IMG/VR virus record: IMGVR_UViG_3300025131_000046 | Span: 1-56,224 of that record | DNA length: 56,224 nt | Origin: a virus | Taxonomy: Duplodnaviria; Caudoviricetes | Strand: one strand, 5' to 3' | Shown: positions 8,564-56,224 of the stretch, piece by piece | Layout: every line of letters begins with the position of its first letter | Numbering within the stretch: position 1 is the stretch's first letter | The notes under the pieces: generated by a model | The model's database searches: none | Told to the model about the DNA's origin: nothing | The model's input: only the letters and a program-made list of their open reading frames with translations | Made by a program: the position numbers and the translations under genes

Positions 8564-8875
8564 ATGGCAATCACTGATCCGAGGGCGGTGAAGTTTGCGA
8601 ACGAGAATGCCCGTGTAGCGGCGGACTTGTTCGCACAGGGATACTACAGGGCAAAAGCTGCGGTCGACCAAGTCGATGCACAAGGGCTGGAGGCGTTGTT
8701 CCCCGACGCAGAGACTGTCGAGGACAATAGCGACGTTGACGGTCGGTCTCGTATCACCGGCATGCACGTCAAAGGTGTAATCACCGCGATGAGAGCACTG
8801 GTTGCGGACATGGACGCGAACGGTAGTGCAAAATTGAACGCGATTCTTCAAGTTGCCGTGAATACGAGGGTATGA
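8564..8875 (+). CDS. hypothetical protein (start of GC-richer cassette)
   Basis: 103-aa ORF with GAGG RBS. Confidence 0.7.
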   Translation: MAITDPRAVKFANENARVAADLFAQGYYRAKAAVDQVDAQGLEALFPDAETVEDNSDVDGRSRITGMHVKGVITAMRALVADMDANGSAKLNAILQVAVNTRV

Positions 8876-8876
8876 C

Positions 8877-10130: not shown

Positions 10131-10166
10131 CCACGTTCTACGCTTTGCAAAAGGGATGAAACAAAA

Positions 10167-10610
10167 ATGGACCTCGCAGCATTGGCGGCAGAATTGGCTG
10201 TCGGACACCCGGAAACGGGCAGCTATGATGGCAACGACGCGGCGGCAGCGGATCAGATAAACGCAGTCAACCGCACGCAACTGCGGTCGCTGACGATGGC
10301 CGATCTGCGGGAGTGGGCGGCCCAAAATGCACGCGGCCTCAAGGTGTTTCGCGGCATCACGGACGGTGTCAACGATGACGTCAAGAATCTGTGCTATGTC
10401 GCGGACAGGATGCTCGGATCGGACACCACGACACTGCATCCAGGTGACCCGCTACATGCGTCGCTGATCCAGGGCCTCGTGGTAGGCGGCGTCATCGACT
10501 CTGACGACGCGATGGCTCTGGCTGCACAGGCAACTGACACCGTTAGCCGAGCGGATGAGCTTGGGCTGGGTCGCGTTCGCGTGGGTCATGTATCGGAGGC
10601 AAGAGGCTAA
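10167..10610 (+). CDS. hypothetical phage protein
   Basis: 147 aa ending in SRADELGLG.V..GHV..AR; stop overlaps the next start. Confidence 0.75.
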   Translation: MDLAALAAELAVGHPETGSYDGNDAAAADQINAVNRTQLRSLTMADLREWAAQNARGLKVFRGITDGVNDDVKNLCYVADRMLGSDTTTLHPGDPLHASLIQGLVVGGVIDSDDAMALAAQATDTVSRADELGLGRVRVGHVSEARG

Positions 10611-11194
10611 TGGCACTTCCTGATTCGTTGAAATTCGTTGATGGCACAAGTTTCATTTTCGCTTACGACACGGACTGGCCAGCATCCCCGACGCAGGGCT
10701 GGTCGGCGACGGTCGATGCGGAGATCGATATGGGCTCTCTTGCGGATGCTGCCGGAAGGCAGAGCGCGAAGTGTGACCTGACTGCCAATCGGGATATGGA
10801 ATATAAAGTCGAACTGTCGGTGGAAACGGATGCGGATCCAGAGTCTGGGTCATCTGTTGACGTCTATTGTGGGTACTCCGACAGTGCGACAGCGGGTACG
10901 GGAAACCCTGCACAACTCTCAGGGACCGACGCGGCGTACACAGGCGGCACGGCTGGAACGCTTGCCGAGGGACTGTTGCAATTGGAGTACGTTGGGTCGC
11001 TGACTCTTCAGGTTACGAGCGACGGAGACGGCGAGCCGCAAGTGGGTGTGATCGGTCGAATTCGTCCGCATGCTCGCTACATGATGATCGTCGTCGTGAA
11101 CAACTCAGGGGATACATTAGGTTCGGGCGGGACTGGCCTAGCCGATGAACTCGCTGTTCGCGTTACCGGAATCACTCACCAGATCCAGGACTGA
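10610..11194 (+). CDS. putative virion protein
   Basis: 194-aa beta-rich ORF, translationally coupled. Confidence 0.7.
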   Translation: MALPDSLKFVDGTSFIFAYDTDWPASPTQGWSATVDAEIDMGSLADAAGRQSAKCDLTANRDMEYKVELSVETDADPESGSSVDVYCGYSDSATAGTGNPAQLSGTDAAYTGGTAGTLAEGLLQLEYVGSLTLQVTSDGDGEPQVGVIGRIRPHARYMMIVVVNNSGDTLGSGGTGLADELAVRVTGITHQIQD

Positions 11195-11196
11195 CC

Positions 11197-12108
11197 GTGT
11201 CTCTGACTCTGTCACAACTCGCACGACCCTCGTACGCTGGCGGCTACGCCCGCAGTGCAGGGGAGAGTGCGTATCCGGATGACTGGAAGAGCCTACAGGG
11301 ACTGTGGGTGCCGAGTCTTGGGGCAACCGGACAGACACTTCGGGACGTAAGCGGTGAGAAAAACCATGGCACGCTCAACAGTGCGACGTGGGTGGCAGGT
11401 GGACTGAACTTCGACGCCATCGACGACTATGTGAGTCTACCCGCATCGATTTCTACAGGTCTCACGAAATGGACGATGCTGCTGTGGATTTGGTCCGACG
11501 CGACGACGCTGCGGTTCTCTCCGTTTGGCGACGACCTGTCAAGTCTCAGTTGTTGCCCGACAGTTCGATACGACAGTTCGGGGCGGTACGAATTCTACGC
11601 GGGAGATGGGGCGGCGTTCTATGTGTCGGCTCGCACGTCATCGGTTGCCGGAGCCACGGGTCGATGGCAGCAAGTCGCGTTCGTGTACGATGGCTCGGCT
11701 GTTGCGAGTATCTATCTGGACGGCAAAAAAGACCAAGACACGGCGGTGACCGGAGGGGCAGCGAACTCTGCCGGTACTGACGTGCGGCTTGGGGGCGGAG
11801 CAAATACCAGCACTAAATCTTGGGGCGGCACGTACGGTAGTGCAAGACTCTACAGTCGGGCACTCACGGATGTCGAGATCGCTAACGATTGGGCCAACCC
11901 GCTCCGCATGCTTCGCCCGGTTCGGCACATGCCGTACGCGACAGGCGAAGCACCACCGGCTGGCACAACACTCTATGTATTTCACGGCCTGATTGCCGCC
12001 AGCGAGACCGGGGATACGGTGCTGTCGGTGTTTGCTCCGTGGTGGGATGCGGATGAGGATGCGGCTGGCACAATTCTCCCGCAAATGATGCACCATCTTT
12101 CAGGATGA
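11197..12108 (+). CDS. LamG/concanavalin-A-like domain virion protein
   Basis: L.DVSG..NHGTL, GLNFDAIDDYV, WQQVAFVYDG...IYLDG, RLYSRALT..EI motifs. Confidence 0.85.
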   Translation: MSLTLSQLARPSYAGGYARSAGESAYPDDWKSLQGLWVPSLGATGQTLRDVSGEKNHGTLNSATWVAGGLNFDAIDDYVSLPASISTGLTKWTMLLWIWSDATTLRFSPFGDDLSSLSCCPTVRYDSSGRYEFYAGDGAAFYVSARTSSVAGATGRWQQVAFVYDGSAVASIYLDGKKDQDTAVTGGAANSAGTDVRLGGGANTSTKSWGGTYGSARLYSRALTDVEIANDWANPLRMLRPVRHMPYATGEAPPAGTTLYVFHGLIAASETGDTVLSVFAPWWDADEDAAGTILPQMMHHLSG

Positions 12109-12116
12109 TGTGATAT

Positions 12117-13322
12117 ATGGCAGCACTACTCGACATCGTCAAAAAAGGCTCGACAGATCGATCGGTGACGATCCGAATTATCGATAGCTCGGACGGTACG
12201 CCCGAAACGGCGGTTGTTTGGAATACGTCGGGGATTGACCTCTGGTATCGACGAGAAGGATCTGCGGTTGTCAGTATCACCGAGGCCACGTTGTCGGCAC
12301 TGACCGACGCACACTCAGACGGCGGCTTCTTGCATGTGTCGCACGGCGAATACCGCTTCGACATTCCAGACGCAGCATTTGCGACGGGAGAGAATCATGT
12401 TGACATCGGCGGCACAGTGACAGACATGGTCGTAATCGGCGGGCGGGTGCGTCTGGTCGATTACGATCCCGAAGACGCGGTCCGCCTGGGACAGACGGCG
12501 TTGCCGAACGCAGCCGCAGACGCGGCGGGTGGGTTGCCGATCAGCGATGCGGGCGGGCTAGATTTGGATACAATTTCAACCGACATCGCAACCGCCAAGA
12601 CGCAGATCGGCACGGCGGGTGATGGCCTCACTGACTTGGGCGGCATGTCGACCGGCATGAAAGCAGAAGTGCAGGCAGAAGCCGACGCATCACTAGCATC
12701 TTACGACGGGCCAACGAACAGCGAACTAGAGGCCCGCACGATTGCGGCGGCGTCTTACTTCGACCCCGCTGCCGATATTGTGGCGAACGTCACGACAGTT
12801 GCGACGACAACGACGAACAGCGACATGCGGGGCACGGATTCGGCAGCAACGGCAACAGCACTGGCAACCGCACAGACGGATCTAGACACGCTAACGGGAT
12901 CGGACGGGGCAACGCTGGCGACGACACAGGGCAACTATGCACCGCTTAAGCCGACAACGGCGGGCAGGACGCTTGACGTTACCTCGGGTGGGGCAGCGGG
13001 CATTGATTGGAGCAACATCGAAAACCCGACGACGTCTGTTGACCTGAGCGGAACCGATATCCAACTGTGCGACACGGTGACAACGAACACCGACGCAATT
13101 ACGGTAGCAGGCATCCTGACGACGCAGATCACGGAAGCGTACGCAGCAGACGGGGCATCGCCTACAGTGGCACAAGCGTTGTGCATGATCCAGCAGCTAT
13201 TGGGCGAATTCGCAATCAGCGGAACAACGCTCACGGTGAAGAAGATCGACGGAAGCACAACAGCGGGCACGTTCACGCTGGACGACGGAACGAGTCCAAC
13301 ATCGATCACGAGGGCAACGTAA
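12117..13322 (+). CDS. Ala/Thr-rich virion fibre-like protein
   Basis: 401 aa of low-complexity A/T/G/D composition; N-terminal G.YRFDIPDAAFATG motif. Confidence 0.7.
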   Translation: MAALLDIVKKGSTDRSVTIRIIDSSDGTPETAVVWNTSGIDLWYRREGSAVVSITEATLSALTDAHSDGGFLHVSHGEYRFDIPDAAFATGENHVDIGGTVTDMVVIGGRVRLVDYDPEDAVRLGQTALPNAAADAAGGLPISDAGGLDLDTISTDIATAKTQIGTAGDGLTDLGGMSTGMKAEVQAEADASLASYDGPTNSELEARTIAAASYFDPAADIVANVTTVATTTTNSDMRGTDSAATATALATAQTDLDTLTGSDGATLATTQGNYAPLKPTTAGRTLDVTSGGAAGIDWSNIENPTTSVDLSGTDIQLCDTVTTNTDAITVAGILTTQITEAYAADGASPTVAQALCMIQQLLGEFAISGTTLTVKKIDGSTTAGTFTLDDGTSPTSITRAT

Positions 13323-13567
13323 TGGCGATTCGCACTGTCGTCACTCGGGGATTCGGGAACGGGACGTTCAGCGGGACGATCTCATTGGTTGTAGCACGCG
13401 GATATGCGACTGGTGCAGCTATTATATCCCGTACAAAAATGCCTCGGTTACAACAGGCTACTACAAGAATCATTGGTTTAGACACATCCGCAACATCTGT
13501 TATTGGTATGAATACTCTCACAACATCTGTTATTGGTATGAATACTCTGGAACATCAGGAACGATAA
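13322..13567 (+). CDS. small hypothetical protein with internal 10-aa duplication
   Basis: ATG overlaps the upstream TAA; MAIRTVVTRGFGNG...; TSVIGMNTL occurs twice. Confidence 0.6.
   Translation: MAIRTVVTRGFGNGTFSGTISLVVARGYATGAAIISRTKMPRLQQATTRIIGLDTSATSVIGMNTLTTSVIGMNTLEHQER
13491..13548 (+). repeat. 28-bp tandem duplication (period 30)
   Basis: CAACATCTGTTATTGGTATGAATACTCT at 13491 and 13521. Confidence 0.9.
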
Positions 13568-34398: not shown

Positions 34399-35313
34399 AT
34401 GTCCGAGTCCAAAACGCAAACGCTCGAAGCTGTTGATTATGCGGCTGTTAACTGGGAAGTTATTGACAAACTAACCAAAGAAATGATGGCGTCTGCTCTA
34501 ACTCTTACTCAGAGAGAAGCCCGACATTTAGTAGGCATGTATTACTCAGTACAAAACTTCCGTATTCATGCTGGGAACCACACCTCAGTAAAAACAGGGG
34601 CAGATGCTAATCCTGTCCTGGCTTGGGTGTTTTCTAACTGTCGCCTGATTGAGGAGAATATTAAACGGGCACTTGGCAGGTTTGCAGCAGAATTTACAGT
34701 TGGTCAATGGTTACAGAGTATCTGCGGCATCGGTCCTGTTATCTCGGCTGGCTTCATTGCTCACCTTGATGTTCGAGACCGACCTACCTATGGTCACTTT
34801 CACTCGTTTGCTGGTCTCAGTCCCCATATCAAATGGGAGAAAGGACAAAAAAGACCATTCAACGCTGCTCTTAAAGTCCTCTGTTACAAAGTAGGGGAGA
34901 GCTTTGTCAAAGTCCAGAACAACAAAAAGGACTACTACGGTAAGCTGTATGCTGTACACAAGGCTGGCCTAGTTCTGCGTAATGAAAGGGGTGACTTTGC
35001 TGAAGACTCTGCTCGAATTCTAACCGAAAAGAATTGGGGTAAAGACACTGATGCTTACGGGCATTATTCGGGTGGTAGACTACCGCCCGCTCATGTCCAT
35101 GCTCGTGCTCGTAGATATGTAGCCAAGCTACTTTTGTCACATCTTCATACCGTGATGTATGAAGACTATTACAAAACCAAAGCTCCTATTCCTTACCCAT
35201 TTTCTAAACATGCAAAAGAAGCTGCTATGCCTGATCATCGTCACTTGCTAGAAGTCCCTAACTGGCCGATGTTATCCTTTGGAAAAGACTTAGCCTGCCT
35301 GCTTGATTCCTAG
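34399..35313 (+). CDS. TasA-like Nop/IS110-related RNA-binding protein (no nuclease domain)
   Basis: N-terminal helical region, LQSICGIGPVISAG (IS110/Nop helix-hairpin), FHSFAGL.P, H.HARARRY..KL.LSHL; no N-terminal DEDD RuvC; flanked by dual-spacer arrays. Confidence 0.85.
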   Translation: MSESKTQTLEAVDYAAVNWEVIDKLTKEMMASALTLTQREARHLVGMYYSVQNFRIHAGNHTSVKTGADANPVLAWVFSNCRLIEENIKRALGRFAAEFTVGQWLQSICGIGPVISAGFIAHLDVRDRPTYGHFHSFAGLSPHIKWEKGQKRPFNAALKVLCYKVGESFVKVQNNKKDYYGKLYAVHKAGLVLRNERGDFAEDSARILTEKNWGKDTDAYGHYSGGRLPPAHVHARARRYVAKLLLSHLHTVMYEDYYKTKAPIPYPFSKHAKEAAMPDHRHLLEVPNWPMLSFGKDLACLLDS

Positions 35314-35685
35314 CCATGGTCGCAGATGATGATAATCTAAATAAGGCGAACGTAGTCAACAGGAGCAATAACCCAAGTAGAATGAACGTAGTCACACAAC
35401 GCTATAAACCATGCCACACGACCGCAGTTAGTGATTGAGATACTTCGCATACCCCGAGAACGTAGTCAAGGATTACGATACTTCGCACGCCCCGAGAACG
35501 TAGTTGGACTTTACAACAACTCAAATAGTAGGAACGTAGTCAGTGATTACGATACTTCGCATGCCCCGAGAACGTAGTCAATAATCCAGACATACACGTC
35601 TTCAGAACGTAGTCACAACCAGCAATTCCATACGTGTACTTTGAACGTAGTTAAAGACCAACAATAGCCCAGATGCTTTGAACGT
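35311..35685 (+). ncRNA. TIGR-like tandem dual-spacer guide RNA array 2 (10 units)
   Basis: GAACGTAGTCA-type repeats at 35348, 35384, 35420, 35458, 35496, 35532, 35570, 35605, 35643, 35680 (period 35-38), plus a half repeat TAGCCA overlapping the tas stop codon. Confidence 0.88.
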
Positions 35686-35700: not shown

Positions 35701-36273
35701 ATGACAATCTATCGACGGATTGTGGATAAGTCTATTTCTCCCGAATTCAGAAAGCTACAGCGGCAATACAAAGACTGTAAAAAATGTGCCTTGTGTAAAA
35801 CTCGTAACCTTGTAATACATTATAGGGGCAATATACCCTGTGATATTGTTTTCCTTGGTGAAGCTCCAGGAGAGTCTGAAGACATTCTGGGTATTCCATT
35901 CATCGGACCAGCAGGTAAAAAACTTGATGAGGCATTAACTGAATTGCTGGCGGACATAACATTCCGGTTTGCAATTACCAACATTGTGTCTTGCATCCCT
36001 CTAGACGAGGACAATCGGATCAGATCACCAACAGCAAAAGAAGCAAAGGCGTGCCGCCCTCGACTCAATCGATTCTTAGCTCTTGCAAAGCCTAAGTTGA
36101 TTGTTACAATGGGCAAAATTGCTCAATCCTTTCTTCCAGAACAGTACAAGGATTATGCAGTGGGCGTTAAGCATCCTAGTGCTATTCTGCGTGCTCACAG
36201 TGCTCGTCAGCCACTAGAATTGCAACGTTTTGTACTGACAGTAAAATCAGCAATTGAGAAAAGAGTAGTATGA
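35701..36273 (+). CDS. uracil-DNA glycosylase family 4 (Fe-S)
   Basis: CKKCALC, GEAPG..E...G.PFIGPAG, TN.V.C.P, HPSAILR. Confidence 0.9.
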   Translation: MTIYRRIVDKSISPEFRKLQRQYKDCKKCALCKTRNLVIHYRGNIPCDIVFLGEAPGESEDILGIPFIGPAGKKLDEALTELLADITFRFAITNIVSCIPLDEDNRIRSPTAKEAKACRPRLNRFLALAKPKLIVTMGKIAQSFLPEQYKDYAVGVKHPSAILRAHSARQPLELQRFVLTVKSAIEKRVV

Positions 36274-36997: not shown

Positions 36998-37948
36998 ATG
37001 ACCTGGAACCTGTATAGTGATGGTATGTCCTACTCTTCGTTATGTAAATTCATGGTTTGTCGAGAACGCTTTCGGCTATACAAAGTTGAAGGTCTCCAGG
37101 AAGAACGAGGATTCCAAGCACCTCTTGAGTATGGCAACTTCTTACATGATGCTCTTGAGATTTATGCTCAGACTCGTAACCTGAAAAAAGCACTTGTTGC
37201 AATCGATGATCAACATTGTAAGCTGTCTGATAAGTATCCTCTGAGTCAAGAAACAATCCGAGACTGGTACATGCTGGCTAGGGGGCAGTTTCCTCTCTAT
37301 GTAGACCACTGGAAAAAGTCAGACAGAAAGCGTGAGTACATCTTTTGGGAAGAAGACTTTCAGTATGCCTATAAACTACCTTCGGGTCGTGTAATTCCGT
37401 TGTTTGGTCGATTTGATGCTGGGTTTAGGGTTGGCAAATCAACGTACCTACAAGAGAACAAGACAAAGGGTAATATTGATCACGAAGGTTTGATGCACTC
37501 AGCACACAAAGACCTTCAAGTCATGTACTACACAATCTGTATGAGACGACTCTACCCCAATGTTCGTGGTACGCTCTACAACATTATTAAGAGACCATTA
37601 TCAGATCGCTTCCCTTTACGCCAGAAAAAGACTGAGTCTCGTAAAGAGTTTCATCAGCGTGTCTTAACTGGTATAGATGAAAATCGAGAGCAGCACTTTA
37701 GTCGGTACACTATTCCAACAACCAACCATGACGTGGAAATCTTTAAGCGGCAAACCTTTATCCCTCTGCTTGAAACAGTTGCTGATTGGTGGGATTCAAT
37801 CAAAGACAATCCTCATGATCCTTGGGGTAGTTCTCACCACTGGGTTCGTCCATACGGCGTTTATGATCCAATGACATTGGGCCGACGAGGAGACCTGTTT
37901 GGCTACTTGACAACAGGCTCTCGACAAGGTATAGTAACGTGTGAATAG
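36998..37948 (+). CDS. PD-(D/E)XK (Cas4/RecB-like) exonuclease
   Basis: SYSSL..F..C, G...H.ALE, G.FD, ENKT, Q...Y motifs. Confidence 0.85.
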   Translation: MTWNLYSDGMSYSSLCKFMVCRERFRLYKVEGLQEERGFQAPLEYGNFLHDALEIYAQTRNLKKALVAIDDQHCKLSDKYPLSQETIRDWYMLARGQFPLYVDHWKKSDRKREYIFWEEDFQYAYKLPSGRVIPLFGRFDAGFRVGKSTYLQENKTKGNIDHEGLMHSAHKDLQVMYYTICMRRLYPNVRGTLYNIIKRPLSDRFPLRQKKTESRKEFHQRVLTGIDENREQHFSRYTIPTTNHDVEIFKRQTFIPLLETVADWWDSIKDNPHDPWGSSHHWVRPYGVYDPMTLGRRGDLFGYLTTGSRQGIVTCE

Positions 37949-46759: not shown

Positions 46760-47149
46760 TCATATCTTCTCTCTCCATGCAGAACCTAAATGTTCTAACC
46801 CGTTAATACTTCTGTTCCAAATGTAGCAGTACACATTACATATTTCATACTCCCGTTTTGTAAACATCTCTGCTTCCAATAGCTGCCTGCCAAACATTAG
46901 TCCTCCCCCTTCGTATATGTCAATCTCCTCAAGTCTCTCTTTGGGTACTTCATACACCTCACCAACCACTACATCAGATCCCTCTAAGCCCTCAATTCCT
47001 GCTGATAAGACTGCTACAGGAAACCCACCAGCATCAAACAATGTATGCTCCCGAATGATTGCTTTACCTAAGTATTTATCACCAGAGAGATACTTGTTAT
47101 GCTGTCTACAGCCTCTCATCAGGTAGCCGTAAACAAATAGATACGCCAT
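46760..47149 (-). CDS. gamma-glutamylcyclotransferase (AIG2-like)
   Basis: LFVYG.LMRG, V.GEVYEV, ID.YEG motifs. Confidence 0.85.
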   Translation of the reverse strand: MAYLFVYGYLMRGCRQHNKYLSGDKYLGKAIIREHTLFDAGGFPVAVLSAGIEGLEGSDVVVGEVYEVPKERLEEIDIYEGGGLMFGRQLLEAEMFTKREYEICNVYCYIWNRSINGLEHLGSAWREKI

Positions 47150-47813
47150 GTTTCTTTTCCTACCAAATGCTTCTTTTTGTAAAGCTGGGATGGACTTGTT
47201 TTGATGCTTACCCCAGATGTGCTTTTTTCGTATTCCTCTAAATATAGCAAGAAAACCCTGTAAATATAGGATATTTCTGCGTATATACTTTTTTACGTTT
47301 GGTCTTTTTGATCATCCCTTAATTCAAAATCTCCGCATCCGTCAAATTGATCACCGCTTGTTACACTCTGTCAGCACCCTTTTTCATCTTCTGGCGTCAG
47401 ATAGCATCCTCTTAATATAACTCTCGGGTGTGTAGTACAGGAGCATGTTGTTTGCACGTATTTAGGTACGCAAAAAATCTACATTCTCCACATGATGTGC
47501 TATTCATGAAGTTATTCCCAATTTCCCAATCCACCACAGATACCGCACTCAAGCTTACCGCCCCCACAACATTGATAACACTCTACTAACCCACTTCCTT
47601 TGCATTCTTCGCATTCTTTGTATTTTTCACATTCTTCGCACTCTGAGTCTGTGTTAAATACTAATTCCTAAGCTTCTTCAATTATGCTTTGTAACTTAAT
47701 ACTGCATGTAGCATCCTTCCTAGCCTTACTCAGTAATGTAAATAAGTCTTTCATCACCCACTTCGGAATTTCTATGGTGGCTTTCTTCTGTGCTTTTCTT
47801 TGCTTTGACATCT

Positions 47814-48266
47814 TTACTCCTCATTTAATGTGTGTCGGCACTTTGGATAATTTGTACATCCCCAAAACGTACCAAACTTTCCCTCTACTCGTCGCATGAT
47901 TGCACTGCATGATGGGCATGTGTGTCCGGGAAAAAGCATTGCAAAGTCTCTTAATCTCTTACCTAGATTCTTTTTCCATGTTTTGATCCTGTTGACCCTA
48001 CCACAACCACACACTCTCAATATGGTTCCTTGTTCTGTTCTGGTGAAAAGCATCACCCTAACAGCGTCAGCACCACACTCCCTACTTTCGTCTGTACCGG
48101 CATCAATTCCAGTAAAAACACGTAGGGACAATTGATGTCCTTTTACATCAACTCTCTTGGCAAAGACAATCTCGTACGTCCGCTCTACCTCTATCTGCGT
48201 AAACCCTTTGGGTTCCAAAAAGAACGTCATCTCAGCTAGTGTAATATTGTGGAATTGGTTATTCAT
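47814..48266 (-). CDS. protein with C-terminal topoisomerase-type C4 zinc ribbon
   Basis: CPSC...M....GKFG.FWGC.NYPKCRHT. Confidence 0.8.
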   Translation of the reverse strand: MNNQFHNITLAEMTFFLEPKGFTQIEVERTYEIVFAKRVDVKGHQLSLRVFTGIDAGTDESRECGADAVRVMLFTRTEQGTILRVCGCGRVNRIKTWKKNLGKRLRDFAMLFPGHTCPSCSAIMRRVEGKFGTFWGCTNYPKCRHTLNEE

Positions 48267-48521
48267 TCAGTTTTGCTCTGCTTTTAAGGTTATTGCCAGA
48301 TGCATCAGCTTAGCTTGTAGTTCCATCATTCTTTTGTCTGATCCTTCTGGGAGGCAATGAGTTATTTCTGCTGCTAACGCTGATAACACTTCCGGCCCTA
48401 GATACTTGGTTAACAAAGCTACAACAGTGAAGTCAATTGAATAAAGAAACGCTATATCTTCAGGTGGTGACTTTAGTATAGCTACCTCAATTAGCCGCCT
48501 CTTGTGTTCCCAATCAATCAT
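48267..48521 (-). CDS. hypothetical protein
   Basis: 84-aa ORF tightly packed in a leftward operon. Confidence 0.55.
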   Translation of the reverse strand: MIDWEHKRRLIEVAILKSPPEDIAFLYSIDFTVVALLTKYLGPEVLSALAAEITHCLPEGSDKRMMELQAKLMHLAITLKAEQN

Positions 48522-48753
48522 TCTTATTCCTTTCTTGTTCTGTAATCCTGTCTAGGGTTGTCATGCATTCTCGAATTGTCTGAATCAAGGTTGGCACCCG
48601 AGCATGCCAAGTAACCGTGTTGCTTTTGTTCTGGTTGTCTAACTGCACAAGTTCGTCATACGCTTCATACAGCCTGCCCCTGGCTTGAAGCAGCCTACGC
48701 ACCCTAGTTTCGTTTACCACCACTATTTTTCTCCAGGAAGAAACCCATATCAT
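48514..48753 (-). CDS. hypothetical protein
   Basis: First ORF after the leftward consensus promoter. Confidence 0.55.
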   Translation of the reverse strand: MIWVSSWRKIVVVNETRVRRLLQARGRLYEAYDELVQLDNQNKSNTVTWHARVPTLIQTIRECMTTLDRITEQERNKND

Positions 48754-48761
48754 TTTGTCCC

Positions 48762-48857
48762 ATTATACTAGCCTACATAAACTTGTCAACCCTAGAATCT
48801 AGAAAATATCCAGAATCTTGTATTATCTCTTGACAGACCCACTATAGCTGGTATGAT
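48762..48857. promoter_or_regulatory. divergent sigma70-type promoters
   Basis: Minus strand TTGACA-16-TATAAT (48789-48762); plus strand TTGACA-16-TATGAT (48830-48857). Confidence 0.7.
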
Positions 48858-48918
48858 TATACCTGTAGATGCACAAAACATCGTGCTCGTAACTTTTTTA
48901 GTACAGGAGAGTAGACAG

Positions 48919-49152
48919 ATGGCGAAGAAAAAGAAGGCTGCAAAGAAAACCGCAAAGAGCAGGACTACTACAAAGCTTCAGCATGCTCAGTATCGTCAAG
49001 GCTACCTTGATGATGTAGTAAAGCCATTCCTAACAAAAGAAGCTGTCTCATGGAGTGACCTTGTTCGTATTGGCGTAGCATCTGTAATTAAGAAAGGTAA
49101 GATTACTGTTACAGACCGCAAGCTGAGCACAGAGATTCGGGATTATACATAG
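48919..49152 (+). CDS. small basic protein, possible DNA-binding regulator
   Basis: AGGAG RBS; Lys-rich N-terminus; SWSDLVR.GV (ribbon-helix-helix-like helix). Confidence 0.6.
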   Translation: MAKKKKAAKKTAKSRTTTKLQHAQYRQGYLDDVVKPFLTKEAVSWSDLVRIGVASVIKKGKITVTDRKLSTEIRDYT

Positions 49153-49202
49153 TCAAGTCAACCCTCCGTGCAATTTGGGTATTAACCTCGGCAAGATCGT
49201 TC

Positions 49203-49422
49203 AATCGATTTTGTCGGGGTTTCTTTATGGGTAGAAACCCCGGTAGATTTTGTTATCTGCTGGGGTTTCTTTACGTACCTGCCCCAATCGATTTTGTCGG
49301 GGGTATGTTCAATCGATTTTGTCGAGGATCACCAATCGATTTTCTTGGGGATGCAATCGATTTTGTCGGGGGTATTACCAATCGATTTTGTCGGGGGTAT
49401 TACCAATCGATTTTGTCGGGGG
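49203..49422 (+). repeat. cluster of 7 AATCGATTTT(GTCGGGG) direct repeats
   Basis: Copies at 49203, 49286, 49311, 49334, 49355, 49380, 49405. Confidence 0.9.
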
Positions 49423-49471
49423 CCTTAGTAAACAATATTCACCCCTCTTAATGCTATACGTACACTAGCCT

Positions 49472-49506
49472 CTATATAAGACCTTAGTATACAATGTTCA
49501 GTAGGT
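49472..49506 (+). repeat. 35-bp direct repeat, copy 1 (copy 2 at 52849-52883)
   Basis: CTATATAAGACCTTAGTATACAATGTTCAGTAGGT is identical at both sites. Confidence 0.9.
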
Positions 49507-49533
49507 ATACCCTATATGGTATATTGTATCATC

Positions 49534-49782
49534 GGTGGTCAAAATCTGACATTGGTCAATTCTTGATCACTTGTTATAAGTCTATGTAGCATAACAAGTT
49601 ACGTCTACAAAACAGCATATTCTCGCTTTGGTGGTCAATCCTTGACCGGACGATATATCATATCTTTCTGATTGTTGCATAATGCTACACATCATTGCAT
49701 AACGTAAACCGTTACTACATAACGACTTATAGCAATATCTAAAATTATATCCAGAATCCTAACTTTTGGCATGCAATTTGCT
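49534..49782 (+). promoter_or_regulatory. sigma54-type promoter module A (palindromes + IHF-like sites + -24/-12)
   Basis: TGGCAT-N5-TTGCT at 49767-49782; GGTCAA-N3-TTGAYC palindromes; homologous to 55478-55726 with identical spacing. Confidence 0.7.
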
Positions 49783-49838
49783 AATACTTTTGGTGACGTT
49801 GGTCGATATCCTTAACATTAGATTGGAGAATTGAGTCT

Positions 49839-49997
49839 ATGGAATATACCATTGAAGTTGAGACTGTACAAAATAGTCTAAATATGGATGTTGTAATATA
49901 TCTTGTACGTGGTGATGATATCACGTTTGCAGAAACAAGATATATAGACATTGCTCACATGATTGTTGACGCACTACAAACGAAGGATAAAGCATGA
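49839..49997 (+). CDS. small hypothetical early protein
   Basis: GGAG RBS; 52-aa ORF MEYTIEVETV..., read manually (below the ORF-track cutoff). Confidence 0.5.
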   Translation: MEYTIEVETVQNSLNMDVVIYLVRGDDITFAETRYIDIAHMIVDALQTKDKA

Positions 49998-50056
49998 CAT
50001 ACAGAGTTGAAATTGAAAGCAGATTAAATCGACAACCGTGTAGGAGAGAAAATCCA

Positions 50057-50512
50057 ATGAATGAAACGTACAACGGTATTGACTATGGTATGGGACGGAC
50101 AAACATCGATCAGACAACCGGTATCAGATATGGAGTCATCTCGCAACACGATTTGCCAGAATGGTTTTTCGATGATGTAGAGATGATCTATCCTGAACCA
50201 GAACACGTAGACGATTGCGACAACTATGGTACAGATGATTTTGATCACTGTTTTTGCAACGATTGTCTTGAACCGATTGGATGGCATTATGAGTCTGGTG
50301 GGGTTTGCTTAGCAGATTGTCTTGACTCTGATGCTTTCATCTTTGCATCAACACACACCACAACCGGAACGTACTGTTCGCCATGCGTCCCTGGTGCAGT
50401 CAGTGTAGGCACGGATGGCGATATCGTTTGTTACGGACTGCCGCCAGAATGGTACGATGGAAGCTACGTCAAGCAAAACCACATCTCTATCCCTATCGCA
50501 AAGGAAAGCTAA
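50057..50512 (+). CDS. acidic Cys-rich early protein
   Basis: AGGAG RBS; GIDYG.G.TNID..TGIRYGVISQ and CSPCVPGA motifs. Confidence 0.75.
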   Translation: MNETYNGIDYGMGRTNIDQTTGIRYGVISQHDLPEWFFDDVEMIYPEPEHVDDCDNYGTDDFDHCFCNDCLEPIGWHYESGGVCLADCLDSDAFIFASTHTTTGTYCSPCVPGAVSVGTDGDIVCYGLPPEWYDGSYVKQNHISIPIAKES

Positions 50513-50513
50513 C

Positions 50514-51293
50514 ATGTTGCTCATGCCTACCGAATACCAGAACATCATAGATAATGCTGGTATCTCGCCAGCATATCTATCAGACGATCATAGATACACG
50601 CTGGACGACGTACACAAGCTGATTGAGTATATGATCCAGACCGAACATGACGACGCAATAGAGGAGCTACAGGAGCTCCGTGTAGCGTTGATTGACAAGA
50701 CATTAACCAGCATGATGGAATCTCATGTTGAGTATGAGGAATCACATCAAGATGCTGGTGACAACTATGCTCATATGCCACAAGAGTCTGCAAACCATAT
50801 GTGTTCTACACGTTGTCAAGAATTGATTGACTATTGCGACGATTACATTTCTCGCTTTGACACTGCTGGCTATCGCCCAACAGACAAACGATTTGCATCT
50901 GATGTGTTGAGTGAACTGCTGGAAACATTTAATATGGTTGCTGGCAACAGATTTCTATCATCTGTTTCTGGTTTCGTCTTAGACTCGTACTGCGTCGGAG
51001 AAGTAGAAACTCAAATCGAGTTACAGACAATCGCACATGATTCTGGTATCGACAGAGACGTAGTGGAGTCAATCCTACGCAGTGATCCTAGTATCGGTAA
51101 TCAATTCTGTATCACCTATAGCAAACATGACACTGATTGCTTGCTAGCCTATCAATCATCTGACGTAGTCTGGTATGCAGTATCTGACGATGAACAGATA
51201 CGTGAAGCAATCACCAAAGTCTGTATTGATCGATGTGAACGTCAAGATAAGAATCGAAAGGATAAAATCAATGACACTGATCGTAACAATTGA
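50514..51293 (+). CDS. acidic early protein
   Basis: AAGGA RBS; long D/E-rich ORF. Confidence 0.7.
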   Translation: MLLMPTEYQNIIDNAGISPAYLSDDHRYTLDDVHKLIEYMIQTEHDDAIEELQELRVALIDKTLTSMMESHVEYEESHQDAGDNYAHMPQESANHMCSTRCQELIDYCDDYISRFDTAGYRPTDKRFASDVLSELLETFNMVAGNRFLSSVSGFVLDSYCVGEVETQIELQTIAHDSGIDRDVVESILRSDPSIGNQFCITYSKHDTDCLLAYQSSDVVWYAVSDDEQIREAITKVCIDRCERQDKNRKDKINDTDRNN

Positions 51294-52075
51294 GACCGAT
51301 GATTGTGCTCACATGGACAATCCATGTGATTGGGGCGGATTCATCGGTAGCGACCATGTTGCAGACGCAATCAGAGATGCAGTCAAGGAGTGTAGGGAAT
51401 CACCAGCAGAAGAAGTTATCGTACGTGGAACGTGTTCCTGGATTCTAGAAGACGAGTATGAGAGGACAGAATCATGATCAGAATCGTGAGAGATGCTGTC
51501 GTCGGCACGCTGACTGGAACTATCGTTGTTGTTGCTGTCTGGTTCGCGTTGAACGTCGTTCGTACAATCCTCTATTAAAGGTATCAATTGACACAACAAG
51601 ACAAAGACAATGAGAAAGCTACTGTCGATGCTTTCACTATCCTATTTGTCATAGTGATTGCTGCTGAAGTTGTAGGATCAATGTTAACCATAGGAGACTA
51701 GTCATGTTGAGTTTTGTACACGCTACAGATATTGCTGTTGATGAACTGATTCAATCAATCAAGGAAATCGATGACAGTGTAACACGATATGACATTGCAG
51801 AACGTGTTGCCGAATTGCTGGTGGAGCTAGACGGTACTGATCCTATCGATTTTATCCATCGTTGTGGAGTGAACGCATGAGAATAGGACCAAAAATGAAA
51901 CTTGCAGCATGGTATGTTGCCAGAAATCCCAATTGTGCAATCTTACCTATTGCTCGCTTGGTAGGGCCACATAATAGCACGTTTTACGGATACCAGATTG
52001 TACATCGTGCAATCAATGCTGGTTTAATTCATGCTACGTATGCGTCTGGACGCTACACACTAACCGTACCAACAG

Positions 52076-52387
52076 ATGAGTAAAAATATGATGACTCGAA
52101 AGCATTACAACCAGATTGCCGAAACGATTGCTGGCATGCCAAGGTCAGACCTAGACGATATCGCCAGAAACAAACTAGTAGCTAGGTTGTCTCTCATGCT
52201 GGCGTCTGACAATCCACGATTTGACTACGTCAAGTTTGCAACAGCATGCAAACCAGACGAACCACCAAAACGTCCGTCACACTGTACACGTAAACGTGTG
52301 AAACCATTCATGGATGATTGCGGATGCGAGTACTGCAATTGGCTGGACGATCACATCATGGAATCAATGGGAGCATCAGAACCGTGA
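52076..52387 (+). CDS. conserved-looking early phage protein
   Basis: MTRKHY..IA...DNPRFD..KF..AC motif. Confidence 0.7.
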   Translation: MSKNMMTRKHYNQIAETIAGMPRSDLDDIARNKLVARLSLMLASDNPRFDYVKFATACKPDEPPKRPSHCTRKRVKPFMDDCGCEYCNWLDDHIMESMGASEP

Positions 52388-52580
52388 AACATCTCCTACG
52401 TAGATTGATCATGTGGGCGTTGGATATCAAAGTTGTTGTGGCCAATCATCGCGTAGGCGGATGCGAGACTGAGTACGTGATCATCACAATGTGGAACGCT
52501 GAGATATACGCATCCCAAAGTTGGCGTCCAGGAACATTCAAAGGACCGAGAACCACAGACTGATTGTTAGCTAGGTCTCA

Positions 52581-52617
52581 ATGCCCGCAGTGTCTAATCG
52601 ATGCTGCGGGTATTTTT
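52581..52617 (+). terminator. terminator of the rightward early cassette
   Basis: ATGCCCGCAGT / GCTGCGGGTAT stem plus T tract. Confidence 0.7.
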
Positions 52618-52649
52618 ACGTACTTATCTCTATGTCTTATTAACCTATC

Positions 52650-52800
52650 AATCGATTTTACCGCGGTCGATTTTATTGAGGGTTAGCAATCGATTTTACT
52701 AAGGGTCTATATAAGCTATCAATCGATTTTGCTGGGGTCGATTTTACTAAGGGTTAGTGATCGATTTTATCGAGGGTCTTACTAATCGATTTTGCTGGGG
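52650..52800 (+). repeat. second cluster of 7 TCGATTTT repeats
   Basis: TCGATTTT at 52652, 52667, 52690, 52723, 52738, 52761, 52786, mostly followed by a G-run. Confidence 0.85.
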
Positions 52801-52848
52801 GTCTTAATAAGACCTGAATGCCTCTTACTAAGAGGGTCTGACTAAGAC

Positions 52849-52883
52849 CTATATAAGACCTTAGTATACAATGTTCAGTAGGT
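52849..52883 (+). repeat. 35-bp direct repeat, copy 2
   Basis: Identical to 49472-49506. Confidence 0.9.
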
Positions 52884-53193
52884 CTATATAAGGTATTAGT
52901 CTTGCCTATTAGAACATCGTCATGCTGTCGGTTGCAATCGTCGCAGTGTCGACCACAATCGTCATGCTGTGCGTCTGGACGACAGCTTATCGGCAACGAA
53001 TCAACAGACGCCTCAGATTCACGTCTAACGTGTTCAATTCTGGAATAGGTAGTTTACCACCAGAGAAGAACAACGGACGTTACAGACGATCCTAGAACGT
53101 CTGAGGATAGGATCACATCTGTTCATGCTTTGAGCATGCCTATCGTTAATCGTTAACAATCTATATTAAATGATATATCATTGCATGGTATAC

Positions 53194-53227
53194 AAAGAAA
53201 GCCGGTCACCATTTGGCGACCGGCTTT
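53194..53227 (-). terminator. terminator of the leftward early cassette
   Basis: AAAGCCGGTC / GACCGGCTTT stem; TTTCTTT on the minus strand. Confidence 0.75.
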
Positions 53228-53245
53228 GGTTGTTGCTGTCGGCTG

Positions 53246-53518
53246 TCAGACTAGGCATCCGGTTTGTTCGTTCCACAGTCGCTGAAACGTCTCTGCGTCT
53301 ACTCGCTTACTATGATCGTCATCTATCCAATTAAGATGCTTCCCTGTAGTTTGGCCCCAACTGTTGTAACGAATAACTAACTCATTGCCTAGTACGCGAA
53401 ACGCTACTGGAGTCTGGTAGCTATACCAGACTGTAAGGTCACCGATATCAACACGCAACGTGTTGACTCCGTAGTTGTTTGACCGATAGTGTCCGTAACT
53501 TGAGATTGATGGTAACAT
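53246..53518 (-). CDS. conserved-looking early phage protein
   Basis: YSY.TPVAF...N.WG.TTGKHLNWID motif. Confidence 0.75.
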   Translation of the reverse strand: MLPSISSYGHYRSNNYGVNTLRVDIGDLTVWYSYQTPVAFRVLGNELVIRYNSWGQTTGKHLNWIDDDHSKRVDAETFQRLWNEQTGCLV

Positions 53519-53523
53519 GTTTA

Positions 53524-53937
53524 CTACTCACTTTCATCAATTAGGTTAGGTGTTTCTTCTAACTCATAAGCTAACATTGACAACTCATCTTGATTGTCAG
53601 CACACCACTGTGCGATAGCTTCCGGGAATAGGTCCGCATTCTCTGACTCCCTGCCCGTACGTTCCTGATACTCGTACGACTCTCCACAAGCCGATAGGAA
53701 CGACAGCAGAGACTCCAGTCCCTCTTGTAAGCTTCCGCCTTGGCAACCTGATTGCAAGTCATCTCCGATGTACTCTAAGCCGTCTGGAGACACGAAGCAA
53801 TCAATGTAAAACTTGTAGCGTGTTCGTCCGTTGTTTCCAGGATAGTCAGCATAGGTGATCGATACCATAGCGTGATCACCAACGCGAACGGCGGGAAACA
53901 ATCGAGACGAGATGCAAATGGGGTTTGTAAGTTTCAT
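53524..53937 (-). CDS. acidic early protein
   Basis: GGAG RBS; DDL.SG, SLLSFL.AC.E, LFP..IA.W motifs. Confidence 0.75.
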   Translation of the reverse strand: MKLTNPICISSRLFPAVRVGDHAMVSITYADYPGNNGRTRYKFYIDCFVSPDGLEYIGDDLQSGCQGGSLQEGLESLLSFLSACGESYEYQERTGRESENADLFPEAIAQWCADNQDELSMLAYELEETPNLIDESE

Positions 53938-53951
53938 GGTTCAATCTCCCC

Positions 53952-54296
53952 TCAGAGGTTACGAATTGCTCTGGTTAACCGGTCACCAATTGCTTCACAT
54001 ATATCGTCAATATCATGAGCATCAATGTTATCTAGTCTCTGTTCTAAGTCATCAATAGAAGCTTCTCTCTTATACATACTTGAATCAAGTGTGTCTATAC
54101 TTGAATCTAATGTGTCTATGTTGTCTTGCATATCTTCGATAGCTTGTTGTTGTTTGTTCACTACCTCTGTTAAGTCACTCAATAGATTCTCAAACGTGCC
54201 TACAGTTTGCATTACAACATGCGTATCAGTTAATCCTAGCTTACGCAGAATGTACGATTTGACAGTAGCTTTAATCTTAACAATACTGAGTTTCAT
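53952..54296 (-). CDS. acidic coiled-coil protein
   Basis: GAGG RBS; heptad repeat IDTLDSS twice. Confidence 0.7.
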   Translation of the reverse strand: MKLSIVKIKATVKSYILRKLGLTDTHVVMQTVGTFENLLSDLTEVVNKQQQAIEDMQDNIDTLDSSIDTLDSSMYKREASIDDLEQRLDNIDAHDIDDICEAIGDRLTRAIRNL

Positions 54297-54300
54297 GGTT

Positions 54301-54555
54301 CTAATCCTCTATATAAGGGTATGGTTCAACATCATAATCAAAGTCTGCTGTTGTCGTACTGTGCAATCGTTCACATCGTCTATCAATAGCCTCAATCTTC
54401 CGTTTCGCTCCCAATACTAGGTGAGTTTCGTACCCTGAATTCCATGCACGTAGTCCCCCTACGATGTTAAGGTAATCTGATTCAATACTTTCGATTGCTT
54501 CGTCACAATCATCACATGTGAGTAGTGAACGCAATCGCACATCGGTGTGTTTCAT
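54301..54555 (-). CDS. hypothetical early protein
   Basis: Packed ORF in the leftward cassette. Confidence 0.6.
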   Translation of the reverse strand: MKHTDVRLRSLLTCDDCDEAIESIESDYLNIVGGLRAWNSGYETHLVLGAKRKIEAIDRRCERLHSTTTADFDYDVEPYPYIED

Positions 54556-54558
54556 AGC

Positions 54559-54831
54559 TCAAACCCTTGCGTCAAGAATAATACAATCGTCCCATGGTTT
54601 GATATCGTTTGACACTTCATAAACCTGTATAGCAACATGTACGATTTGACAGTAGTGTCGTTTGACTTTTGATATTGCCCATGCACGATTTTGCACATGA
54701 TGTACAATTCCACACTCAATATCCCAACCCGCTTCACCAGTTTGAGGATTACAAGTGTATACCTCAAAATGATACGTCCGGTTTTGTGGTTTACCGGATA
54801 CTTTTAACGGCCTACTTGCTTTGTCTTTCAT
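54559..54831 (-). CDS. hypothetical early protein
   Basis: AAGGA RBS; packed ORF. Confidence 0.6.
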   Translation of the reverse strand: MKDKASRPLKVSGKPQNRTYHFEVYTCNPQTGEAGWDIECGIVHHVQNRAWAISKVKRHYCQIVHVAIQVYEVSNDIKPWDDCIILDARV

Positions 54832-54834
54832 AGC

Positions 54835-55047
54835 TCAATTCCTTTCTCGTGGTGTCCAGTGTAACCGAACTGACTGCGTCTCCCCAAACGTACCTAATGA
54901 GATACCCAAATAACAGCACACCATACCAGCCGGTAGCCAGACTCCGTTCATCTGGTTAAGCCTGTAAGAATCTGCTGACTTGTTGGTGTACTCGTATCTC
55001 AAGCCGGAGATAACTTCAATCTCAACTGTGCATCCAAATTCTCTCAT
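54835..55047 (-). CDS. hypothetical early protein
   Basis: Packed ORF with AAGGG upstream. Confidence 0.5.
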   Translation of the reverse strand: MREFGCTVEIEVISGLRYEYTNKSADSYRLNQMNGVWLPAGMVCCYLGISLGTFGETQSVRLHWTPRERN

Positions 55048-55284
55048 CGTTCAAACCCTTTCAATCGAGGTACTCAGTAACGTCTAACGGCTTGTCGTCA
55101 AGCCTACGCCACAGTAATAGCCCATTGTTTACTGGCCAGCAGATAAGGCCAACAGACAACGTATCCCATTCGCATTAGTCTAGCTCTGCACGCCCAAGCT
55201 TGTGATTCTGTTGCAAACGTGTAGTCTGTCACTTCAATCTCCCGTTTCGTTGTGTTGTGTTGTCTCCTTTAATTGTGGTTGTGC

Positions 55285-55419
55285 CTATTCCTCCTCCCGT
55301 AGAATCGCCTCCGCCAGCCAGAGAATCGCCTCCGCTTCTTCAATGGCAGCTTCCAAGTCAGACTCAAGAGCGACTCTCGAAGCGTCTAGGTCGGCAATAA
55401 AGTCGTCAACCGATGACAT
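55285..55419 (-). CDS. very acidic 44-aa helical peptide, first gene of the leftward early cassette
   Basis: AAGGAGG RBS before the ATG at 55419; MSSVDDFIADLDASRVALESDLEAAIEEAEAILWLAEAILREEE. Confidence 0.6.
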   Translation of the reverse strand: MSSVDDFIADLDASRVALESDLEAAIEEAEAILWLAEAILREEE

Positions 55420-55477
55420 TGCAGTTTCCTCCTTTAATTGTGGTACAGGATAGTGTCGTTCACTGCTTACTTTTAGT

Positions 55478-55726
55478 TGCGATTTTCGTACCATTCGCTC
55501 CAGAATCCAAAATAAAAGTAGAAATAGTTATAAGTCTATATGCATCAACATGTTACGTTAACGGTATCCCATCAGAGAATTCTGATGTGAAGCATGATAT
55601 GATATACCGCATGGTCAGGTATTGACCACATTTGCGGGATTGTGCCAATATCTTGACGTAACATGTTGCTATATATAACGTTATGGCAAGTGGTCAAGGA
55701 TTGATCAACGTCAAGAATTGACCACC
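55478..55726 (-). promoter_or_regulatory. sigma54-type promoter module B (inverted homologue of module A)
   Basis: TGGTAC-N5-TCGCA at 55493-55478; IHF-like ATCAACATGTTA (55544-55555); same palindromes and spacing as module A. Confidence 0.7.
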
Positions 55727-55729
55727 CAT

Positions 55730-56090
55730 CCATAGCATGACATAATGGCATACCATAAGTGTATGCTGATGTGTTGATATGTCATAATGGCATACCATAA
55801 ACATATGCTGATATCTACATATGCTGATACGTTGTAGCAGTGTAACGTATTAAGATATGTAGATATGATAATATCAAAGCATGATGATATGTTGATGTGT
55901 TGATATGATTGCATCAATGCATGTTGATATTAACATATGATGATGTGTTGATATGTTGGTACAATCATATCAGAATATGTTGATATGTTAATGTGTTGAT
56001 ACGTTGAATTGATATGATATATCAACGTATGCTTATATGATAACATGTTAATGCGTTGATGTGTTACCAATAATGATATATCATCAATGG
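55730..56090. repeat. degenerate TGTTGATAT-type short-repeat tract near the right end
   Basis: Many GTTGAT/GCTGAT/ATGATAT motifs plus duplicated CATAATGGCATACCATAA (55741, 55783). Confidence 0.75.
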
Positions 56091-56224
56091 TATACAATCG
56101 ATTTTATGGTGATCGATTTTATGGTAGGGAATACCCGCTAAATGTACTACGTACACTAAGGCTTGGCTAGGTCTATATAAGAGGGGGGAGGGGCTGTTTT
56201 AGTGAACAGGTGTTATATAGGGAC

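Follow-up and report, generated by a model that had tools for sequence, protein, structure and literature searches.

Why should one short octamer be repeated, always in the same orientation, around two blocks of genes that face each other? The question is raised by the right arm of IMG/VR record IMGVR_UViG_3300025131_000046, a tailed-phage record (Duplodnaviria; Caudoviricetes) from marine metagenomes that is 56224 bases long, linear, without end repeats and of 100% CheckV completeness; the window referred to below is this whole stretch. In this arm two sets of small genes, early cassettes 1 and 2, converge, and three clusters of the octamer TCGATTTT, here called arrays 1, 2 and 3, lie before, between and after them. 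The observation itself is solid, and the arrays form a clear, well-delimited regulatory DNA element of an ordinary type.

Exact matching to TCGATTTT on both strands of the window returned 21 copies, compared with 2.27 ± 1.45 expected from 100 dinucleotide-preserving shuffles, none of which reached 21 (shuffle maximum, 8), which bore out the enrichment proposed in an earlier note on this DNA. Nineteen of the 21 copies were on the + strand. Sixteen formed the three clusters, all +, with seven copies at 49205–49414, seven at 52652–52793 and two at 56098 and 56113; these are exactly the counts that the earlier note had given. The start-to-start distances between clusters were 3447 and 3446 bp, in agreement with the separation of about 3.4 kb reported there, and the related sequences said to follow the clusters (TCTATATAAG, TACGTACACTA and an identical 35-mer) were present as described. 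The five copies outside the clusters (+ at 22097, 32558 and 51846; − at 6936–6943 and 37680–37687) were split three to two between the strands, and the strand bias is therefore a property of the clusters and not of the genome as a whole, so that the strand-specific count sustained the enrichment and the cluster bias but not a genome-wide one. Moreover, the copies within an array are tandem duplicates, which reduces the shared strand to three independent orientations, and three independent modules would agree by chance in one case out of four.

The 16 clustered copies, aligned in register, defined a bipartite, asymmetric site of about 20 bp, CAATCGATTTT-N3-G-N-GG. All eight core bases were invariant in 16/16 copies, with A at position −1 in 14 of them and CAA ahead of the core in 12. 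The core was followed by three variable bases and then by a second block consisting of G at +11 (14/16), +13 (15/16) and +14 (15/16), usually with T next. The two conserved blocks are about 10.5 bp apart, which corresponds to about one helical turn and places them on one face of the helix. The site includes an 8-bp palindrome, AATCGATT, yet the complete unit is polar. The extended motif TCGATTTT-N3-G-N-GG fitted 12 of the 16 clustered copies, all of them within 49.2–52.8 kb, and was found at no other site in the genome on either strand.

Judged by sequence, the arrays are parts of three paralogous non-coding modules, all read here on the + strand. Module 1 opens with two hairpins at 49184–49221 and 49233–49270 (span 49184–49270; −57.8 kcal/mol, z −8.3), which are read as terminators of a gene for a small basic protein located immediately upstream. 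The first TCGATTTT copy (49205) lies in the 3′ arm of the first hairpin, 83 bp before the run of six tandem units that makes up array 1 (49286–49422), with start-to-start distances of 25, 23, 21, 25 and 25 bp; TTTACGTAC (49270–49278) precedes the array. The tail of module 1 (49457–49509) carries TACGTACACTA at 49457, TCTATATAAG at 49471 and a 38-mer at 49472–49509. Module 2 opens with the intrinsic terminator of cassette 1 (52580–52614; a 15-bp stem and then a U-run, −25.5 kcal/mol, z −6.1), directly followed by TTTACGTAC (52615–52623) and then by array 2 (52650–52805), in which seven units are spaced 15, 23, 33, 15, 23 and 25 bp apart from start to start, that is, two 71-bp super-units with spacings of 15, 23 and 33 bp plus one unit. 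Its tail (52800–52892) contains three 15-bp palindromes, read by eye (52800–52814, 52821–52835 and 52835–52849), a 38-mer at 52849–52886 and TCTATATAAG at 52883. The hairpins opening modules 1 and 2 all folded far better than shuffled sequences. Module 3 consists of array 3 (56096–56127), two units 15 bp apart that match the pair with which the 71-bp super-unit of array 2 begins, and of a tail running to the record end (56148–56224) with TACGTACACTA at 56148, TCTATATAAG at 56172, a G-run and an end motif at 56194–56221.

The tails tie the modules together. The 38-mers of modules 1 and 2 match at 37 of 38 positions, the first 35 being identical, and TACGTACACTA, with sites at 49457 and 56148, is common to modules 1 and 3. 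All five TCTATATAAG sites (49471, 52706, 52883, 54308 and 56172) are on the + strand. A + oriented AGGTCTATATAAG-type element, which carries a −10-like TATAAG without a −35 hexamer, follows every array, the distances from the last core to CTATATAAG being 65, 63 and 60 bp. All arrays occupy non-coding gaps, and arrays 1 and 2, located directly behind strong terminator hairpins, are therefore unlikely to be transcribed. The DNA following array 1 is 67% AT and that following array 2 is 64% AT, and next to array 3 come the 300 bp in which AT content peaks for the whole genome (72–74%), part of a stretch at 55740–56090 that is the genome's most AT-rich (70–74%). This stretch contains TGTTGATA-type repeats with an 8-bp period and six copies of TATCAACA, all on the − strand, of nine genome-wide against 3.0 expected.

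The action of selection on the arrays was revealed by a natural variant. Assembled contigs (Logan assemblies, rather than raw reads) of four runs were compared over 47000–56224, and one run, X2, contained two 181-base alleles of array 2 with shared flanks, one identical to the window and the other differing by 18 substitutions and no indels. None of the 18 substitutions fell in the 56 core positions (hypergeometric P = 8.5e-4) and none at +13 or +14, and both changes at +11 were A to G, towards the consensus. Spacers thus diverged by about 10% around invariant 8-bp cores, which argues against a neutral minisatellite; no other evidence speaks as strongly for a function of the cores, the G block and the spacing. 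Because the arrays are non-coding and their cores stayed invariant in the diverged allele, the data supported their reading as selected DNA-level signals, as opposed to chance or coding sequence.

What kind of signal would this be? DNA that is probably untranscribed, a two-block site on one face of the helix, repeats about two turns apart and the mark of selection together argue that the arrays are, with high probability, sets of sites to which a sequence-specific protein binds. The function that we favour for them, tentatively and at somewhat less than an even chance, is that of an iteron-type origin or origin-control element. Arrays 1 and 2 each contain at least three same-sense repeats of about 17–22 bp at approximately two-turn spacing, and the 21–25 bp between units of array 1 is the usual iteron spacing. 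The term "iteron", one of several suggestions in the earlier note, therefore proved the best structural description of these tandem same-sense repeats; the replication role, like protein binding and the identity of the binder, we infer. The proposal draws weak support from the AT-rich neighbours of the arrays, and further support from the precedent of phage SPP1 and from the replisome that the phage itself encodes, comprising PolA (family A), a DnaG-type primase with a P-loop, a helicase, a Sak4-like annealase, RuvC and UDG.

In the mechanism that we propose, the tandem, same-sense, bipartite sites of about 20 bp would be docking points on double-stranded DNA, placed in those gaps of the early (right) arm that are not transcribed, in what appears to be a marine siphophage of virulent type. 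Each array would be coated by a protein specific for the site, probably encoded by the phage and produced early, so that a large nucleoprotein complex forms. These complexes would act as replication-origin or origin-control elements, with iterons placed beside easily melted AT-rich DNA, and the extra arrays might pair with one another (handcuffing) or hold up forks, in the manner of SPP1 oriL/oriR. The polarity that the arrays share would then result from the asymmetry of the site and from tandem and segmental duplication of one module, not from a reading of the genome end.

Several findings weigh against an origin role. No Rep/initiator family turned up among the proteins scanned with Pfam or PHROGs (70 queries representing 60 different window open reading frames (ORFs), a subset of all ORFs, to which statements below on scanned ORFs also refer), and the array neighbours are ORFans. 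None of the seven TTWTNCACA matches (DnaA boxes) was located at the TCGATTTT arrays. The analysis of skew for origin activity that the earlier note had recommended gave no origin signal, GC skew simply tracking gene orientation. The spacing of array 2 is irregular (15, 23 and 33 bp) and array 3 has two units only; the AT-richness is a weak argument, since promoters need it as well and are present in the same DNA; and no relative carrying the arrays was found to lend comparative support. In addition, the genome holds a rival array, nine + strand copies of GAACGTAGT at 35348–35652, arranged in steps of about 37 bp with three 38-bp super-units at the head of the replication module, and the genome's only perfect TTATCCACA (35721–35729, −) is 70 bp from it. 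This region is plausibly an origin candidate at least as good as the TCGATTTT arrays. The GAACGTAGT array lies between the replication module and, directly upstream of the array, a gene for a 304-amino-acid (304-aa) protein (34399–35313) that matched a PHROG "transposase" (E 5e-37) and, weakly, Pfam Transposase_20 of the IS110 family.

The 77-aa basic protein encoded at 48919–49152 (+), immediately upstream of array 1, had been named in the earlier note as a candidate binder. It has an isoelectric point of 10.3 and a Lys-rich N-terminal tail, and is an ORFan whose sole homologue was itself, with no match in Pfam or PHROGs and no relative in the PDB. An Atlas language-model lead to MetJ/ribbon-helix-helix proteins scored 0.82, a score also reached by one third of shuffled proteins, and its AlphaFold2 model was all-helical at low confidence (predicted local distance difference test (pLDDT), 64). 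A second basic protein of 68 aa, encoded in cassette 1 at 51877–52083 (+), has a helix-helix-helix-strand-strand order resembling that of a winged helix, with a model pLDDT of 51 and no PDB relative. The predicted models of the two proteins are no evidence of binding, and the 77-aa protein remains a possible, unsupported candidate for the array binder. A 259-aa protein gave no usable Atlas lead.

The polarity of the arrays can be judged only against the genes around them. Cassette 1 (49839–52563, +) comprises about nine small ORFan genes and cassette 2 (53246–55419, −) about eight small genes; their products are small, mostly acidic ORFans, and their coding DNA is mutually unrelated. Each cassette is headed by a control region, at 49531–49669 (+) for cassette 1 and at 55591–55729 (−) for cassette 2, and these are inverted copies of each other over 139 nt (71% identity), both with sigma-70-like hexamers. 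Both regions also contain TGGTCAA-N3-5-TTGACC(A) palindromes, which are distinct from the TCGATTTT sites and look like operators for a dimeric regulator. Between array 2 and cassette 2 lie a 57-aa ORF (52922–53095, +), an uncertain gene without a Shine-Dalgarno sequence whose product would have one hydrophobic helix and a basic tail, and a bidirectional terminator hairpin at 53198–53227. The promoters are thus inverted while the arrays are direct, as the earlier note had recognized in proposing that the genome end, and not transcription, sets the orientation of the arrays. That inference is not compelled by the observation, because the modules are only three, arrays 1 and 2 come just after the terminators of + units, and a + oriented tail element follows each array; + strand transcription or segmental duplication would explain the shared polarity equally well.

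Control of transcription is accordingly the alternative that survives best, although we regard it as possible rather than likely. The arrays would be polar roadblocks or insulators against rightward read-through, or activator or repressor sites for the + oriented tail promoter. Arrays 1 and 2 do lie immediately behind the terminators of + units, the basic-protein gene and cassette 1, and unblocked read-through from cassette 1 would run antisense into the convergent cassette 2; the AGGTCTATATAAG-type element with its −10-like TATAAG comes 60–65 bp after every array, and the gene that directly precedes array 1, for a small basic protein, has a sigma-70 promoter close to the consensus. This promoter (48830–48857, +; TTGACA-16-TATGAT with the TG of an extended −10, 11/12 consensus positions) is paired with a divergent sigma-70 promoter that fits the consensus at 12/12 positions (48789–48762, −) and serves the leftward early operon, and so near-perfect a pair (48762–48857) suggests a host with canonical sigma-70 recognition. 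A precedent is provided by stoperators, which are asymmetric and work in one orientation only, an orientation that correlates with transcription (PMC9283540). Against such control, seven tandem sites behind a strong terminator go far beyond known stoperators, which are single dispersed 13-mers; the sites are confined to the right end instead of being genome-wide, array 3 has no evident + gene on either side, and the promoter scan did not call the TCTATATAAG elements. The constant distance of 60–65 bp is also explicable by paralogy of the modules.

The position of array 3 raises the further question of whether the arrays relate to the genome end. In both X1 and X2 the Logan contigs end precisely at 56224, where the IMG/VR record also ends, with no loose end listed, and an IMG metagenome contig, L215 (56282 bases), is collinear with the window, with 4 single-nucleotide polymorphisms (SNPs), to 229 bases from its own end; exactly 229 bases are also left in the window where collinearity is last seen. 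On its face this is compatible with the DNA ending physically some 100 bp past array 3, with three reservations: X1 and X2 may be source samples of the record, which would make the shared end not independent; L215 carries 58 extra bases that were not placed; and the packaging genes are 14 kb inside the record, behind an intergenic tandem repeat (13472–13548). The latter, a 30-bp unit repeated 2.6 times just upstream of the packaging genes, could itself be a packaging site. The motif CTGTT-N-AACAGGT-N-TTATATAGG occurs in direct orientation at both record ends (19–52 and 56194–56221), and this motif of about 30 bp is all that the first and last bases share; the two copies may be terminase or end-recognition sites. 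The reverse complement of TTATATAG is the CTATATAA present in the module tails.

If this end is real, the arrays might be genome-end or translocation signals, either pause sites for DNA entry or sites of terminase recognition or braking before the terminal cut, a role that we consider doubtful. During entry, stops about 0.1, 3.5 and 7.0 kb from the leading end would allow stepwise expression of cassette 2 and then cassette 1. More improbable still is the specific form in which the arrays act as polar checkpoints that meter DNA entry or terminase travel, a multi-step version of the two-step transfer of T5 that would operate with neither terminal repeats nor DnaA boxes, in a marine siphophage not related to T5. 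All arrays have one polarity and follow regular 3.45-kb steps from the record end, the right end at 56224 recurs in the record, in the X1 and X2 contigs and apparently in L215, the genes at this end are early and sigma-70-driven, and the first-entering segment of T5 also has three untranslated repeat regions (bioRxiv 10.1101/866236). None of the defining features of T5 was found, whether a terminal repeat, paired DnaA boxes or large inverted pairs involving the arrays, so that the analogy with T5 injection drawn in the earlier note gained nothing from any tested feature. Entry pausing also presupposes that the right end enters first, and the reservations on the end itself, together with the chance agreement of three polarities, apply here in full.

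The remaining readings are very improbable. In the first, the modules would be homology patches for the swapping of early cassettes, with protein binding secondary. The modules are indeed paralogous while the coding DNA that they flank is unrelated, and samples differ within the early region: X1, X2 and X3 contigs have 11 other bases in place of 116 bases of cassette 1 (51341–51456), at a depth similar to that of the window form, and X6 contigs diverge from the window at 51833, 53240 and 55475. The X6 evidence comes from low-depth contigs only, and homology patches leave unexplained the bipartite consensus and the invariant 8-bp cores amid 10% spacer divergence. The likelihood of a neutral or selfish minisatellite, or of an element acting at the RNA level, is slightly smaller. 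Slippage can expand tandem repeats, the 71-bp super-unit of array 2 shows recent duplication, and a single weak Rfam match, below threshold, covers the terminator hairpins (49185–49271; 34.8 bits against a gathering score of 60); no Rfam family reached its gathering score, none of the sequencing runs listed as containing the phage was of RNA, three modules are kept, arrays 1 and 2 follow terminators, and the cores are invariant against diverged spacers at the P value given above. The slimmest chance of all goes to a Chi-like, anti-nuclease or other host-enzyme signal, an octamer near the entry end of a RecBCD/AddAB-type enzyme that attenuates degradation of injected DNA: Chi acts on an enzyme entering from the 3′ side of the motif, so a + motif near the right end would be in the active orientation and multiple copies would raise the chance of recognition, but the conserved G-N-GG block and the regular spacing of 21–25 bp are needless for Chi, and known Chi sequences are typically G-rich while TCGATTTT is AT-rich. 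Relatives of the major capsid protein (MCP) are spread over metagenome-assembled genomes (MAGs) of several phyla.

Returning to the arrays as protein-binding, iteron-like elements, we looked for their counterparts elsewhere. A DNA search with 49100–56224 against cultured phages gave no match; the large terminase (TerL) is at most about 36–37% identical to those of the nearest cultured phages, and MCP identity to metagenomic relatives is no higher than 54%. The primase query found no relative in viral contigs, and in metagenome contigs only the same phage (L215, with its 4 SNPs) and one weak match. Five IMG/VR relatives by MCP (46–49% identity) had 0–5 scattered copies of TCGATTTT and no cluster, and relatives G001 and two MAG contigs had only head-module genes in common with the window and no comparable array. 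MCP relatives in MAGs bore labels such as Pirellulaceae and Flavobacteriaceae, among others. As far as the searched collections show, the arrays are lineage-specific.

Searches with the motif itself gave the same picture. A 17-mer scan of sequence collections returned five matches, all single. A paired-core pattern yielded at least 117 stretches, among which the three loci with at least five copies were unrelated to the window by blastn. The scan for bipartite pairs returned 1 viral and 18 genome stretches; 10 of the 18 were one conserved coding motif, 2 were single and coding-looking, and 5, together with the viral one, were unrelated tandem arrays; the matches of all these scans were taken as chance. 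Tandem arrays of TCGATTTT-N3-GGGG occur in the unrelated bacterial and viral contigs L305 (4529–4700), L310 (935–990), L312 (7532–7640), L317 (2162–2250), L318 (19–100) and L300 (10400–10790), and the resemblance was treated as chance because ten proteins neighbouring these arrays share no Pfam family. A distant capsid relative in a Flavobacteriaceae-labelled MAG of 64% GC (G007, contig C14, 28217–28538) has six GCGCAAT and six ATTGCGC within about 300 bp, a palindromic motif different from TCGATTTT. A literature search on the motif returned unrelated papers only.

Elsewhere in the genome, the structural and packaging proteins include an HK97-fold capsid protein, a portal and a large terminase, and no integrase or repressor family was found among the scanned ORFs. 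A GC-rich island at 8800–13500 (56–60% GC against about 43% elsewhere) encodes a matrixin-type peptidase with a peptidoglycan-binding domain together with beta-helix and lectin-like (concanavalin/laminin-G-like) proteins; the beta-helix and lectin-like ones are probably tail proteins that bind receptors or act as depolymerases. L014, a contig holding a fragment of this phage, has an apparent break near 13.3 kb. Inside the leftward early region lies one more tandem intergenic repeat, about five copies of CTTCGCATT at 47598–47644.

If the arrays do act in an origin or in its control, they show at what point replication begins or is limited in an uncultured lineage of marine phages, and the 20-bp site would be a bait for the initiator among its ORFan early proteins. 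If they are instead polar roadblocks or entry checkpoints, they would extend to a new lineage the stoperators of L5 or the two-step transfer of T5, mechanisms known from only a handful of model phages. Whichever applies, the natural allele of array 2, with invariant cores and diverged spacers, provides a ready-made mutational map for binding.

Compared with known systems, the arrays would work as iteron or operator arrays do; by the features tested they belong neither to the T5 iss nor to stoperators nor to omega-type parS, and they agree with iteron origins in their repeats only. In T7, same-sense arrays of short motifs, SRL and SRR, flank a 160-bp terminal repeat at both ends and are implicated in concatemer processing, unlike the three arrays found here, which are on one arm of a genome in which no terminal repeat was found. 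The heptads of the omega system adjoin one another as 7-mers of mixed orientation and work with ParA, and omega/ParB of pSM19035 has several short-repeat arrays per replicon and a flexible basic N-terminus. Here, the cores are separated by 15–33 bp and have one orientation, and the scanned ORFs include no ParA, although the 77-aa protein resembles omega/ParB in its small size and Lys-rich N-terminus. Omega/ParB is a small ribbon-helix-helix binder that needs at least four repeats for function (PMC9499535). In the T1-like phage TLS, 21-nt intergenic direct repeats with a bipartite consensus run along transcription, and stoperators or enhancers have been proposed; there are 21 single, dispersed sites about 76 bases upstream of start codons (PMC11447400). 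The repeats studied here are likewise phage-specific, direct, bipartite and intergenic, but unlike those of TLS they form tandem arrays.

Stoperators, the sites of the L5 repressor in cluster A mycobacteriophages, are asymmetric, lie in short intergenic spaces in an orientation that correlates with transcription, and are bound by a monomer through two domains (PMC9283540). The bipartite site described here would suit a two-domain monomer binder of that kind. Stoperators are single dispersed 13-mers of temperate phages with an immunity repressor, unlike the 2–7 tandem 20-bp units at three places seen here; no genome-wide dispersal was found in the window, and no immunity repressor or integrase among the scanned ORFs. 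The first-step-transfer DNA of T5 has its three untranslated repeat regions between pre-early genes, one of them with nine direct repeats, and their function is still debated; the candidate injection stop is a 131-bp inverted-repeat pair with paired DnaA boxes in a 10-kb terminal repeat (bioRxiv 10.1101/866236). T5 and the present phage both have several non-coding repeat regions near the genome end, among early genes, but the two are unrelated, and here the arrays are direct, without DnaA boxes, in a genome without a terminal repeat.

Phage SPP1 has two origins, each composed of direct repeats with an AT-rich unwinding element, and fork stalling by the origin protein has been proposed at the second origin (PMC6316719). 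Unlike iteron origins, the arrays have no recognisable initiator among the scanned ORFs and no DnaA boxes, and what the three clusters, set 3.45 kb apart in equal steps, enclose is not a rep gene but early cassettes of ORFans. P4 ori/crr, F incB/incC, P1 incC/incA and R6K are further systems that we take to be iteron origins with a second iteron cluster. Like iteron origins of the SPP1 type, the arrays combine tandem same-sense repeats of about 20 bp with an AT-rich neighbour, in clusters that lie kilobases apart on one replicon.

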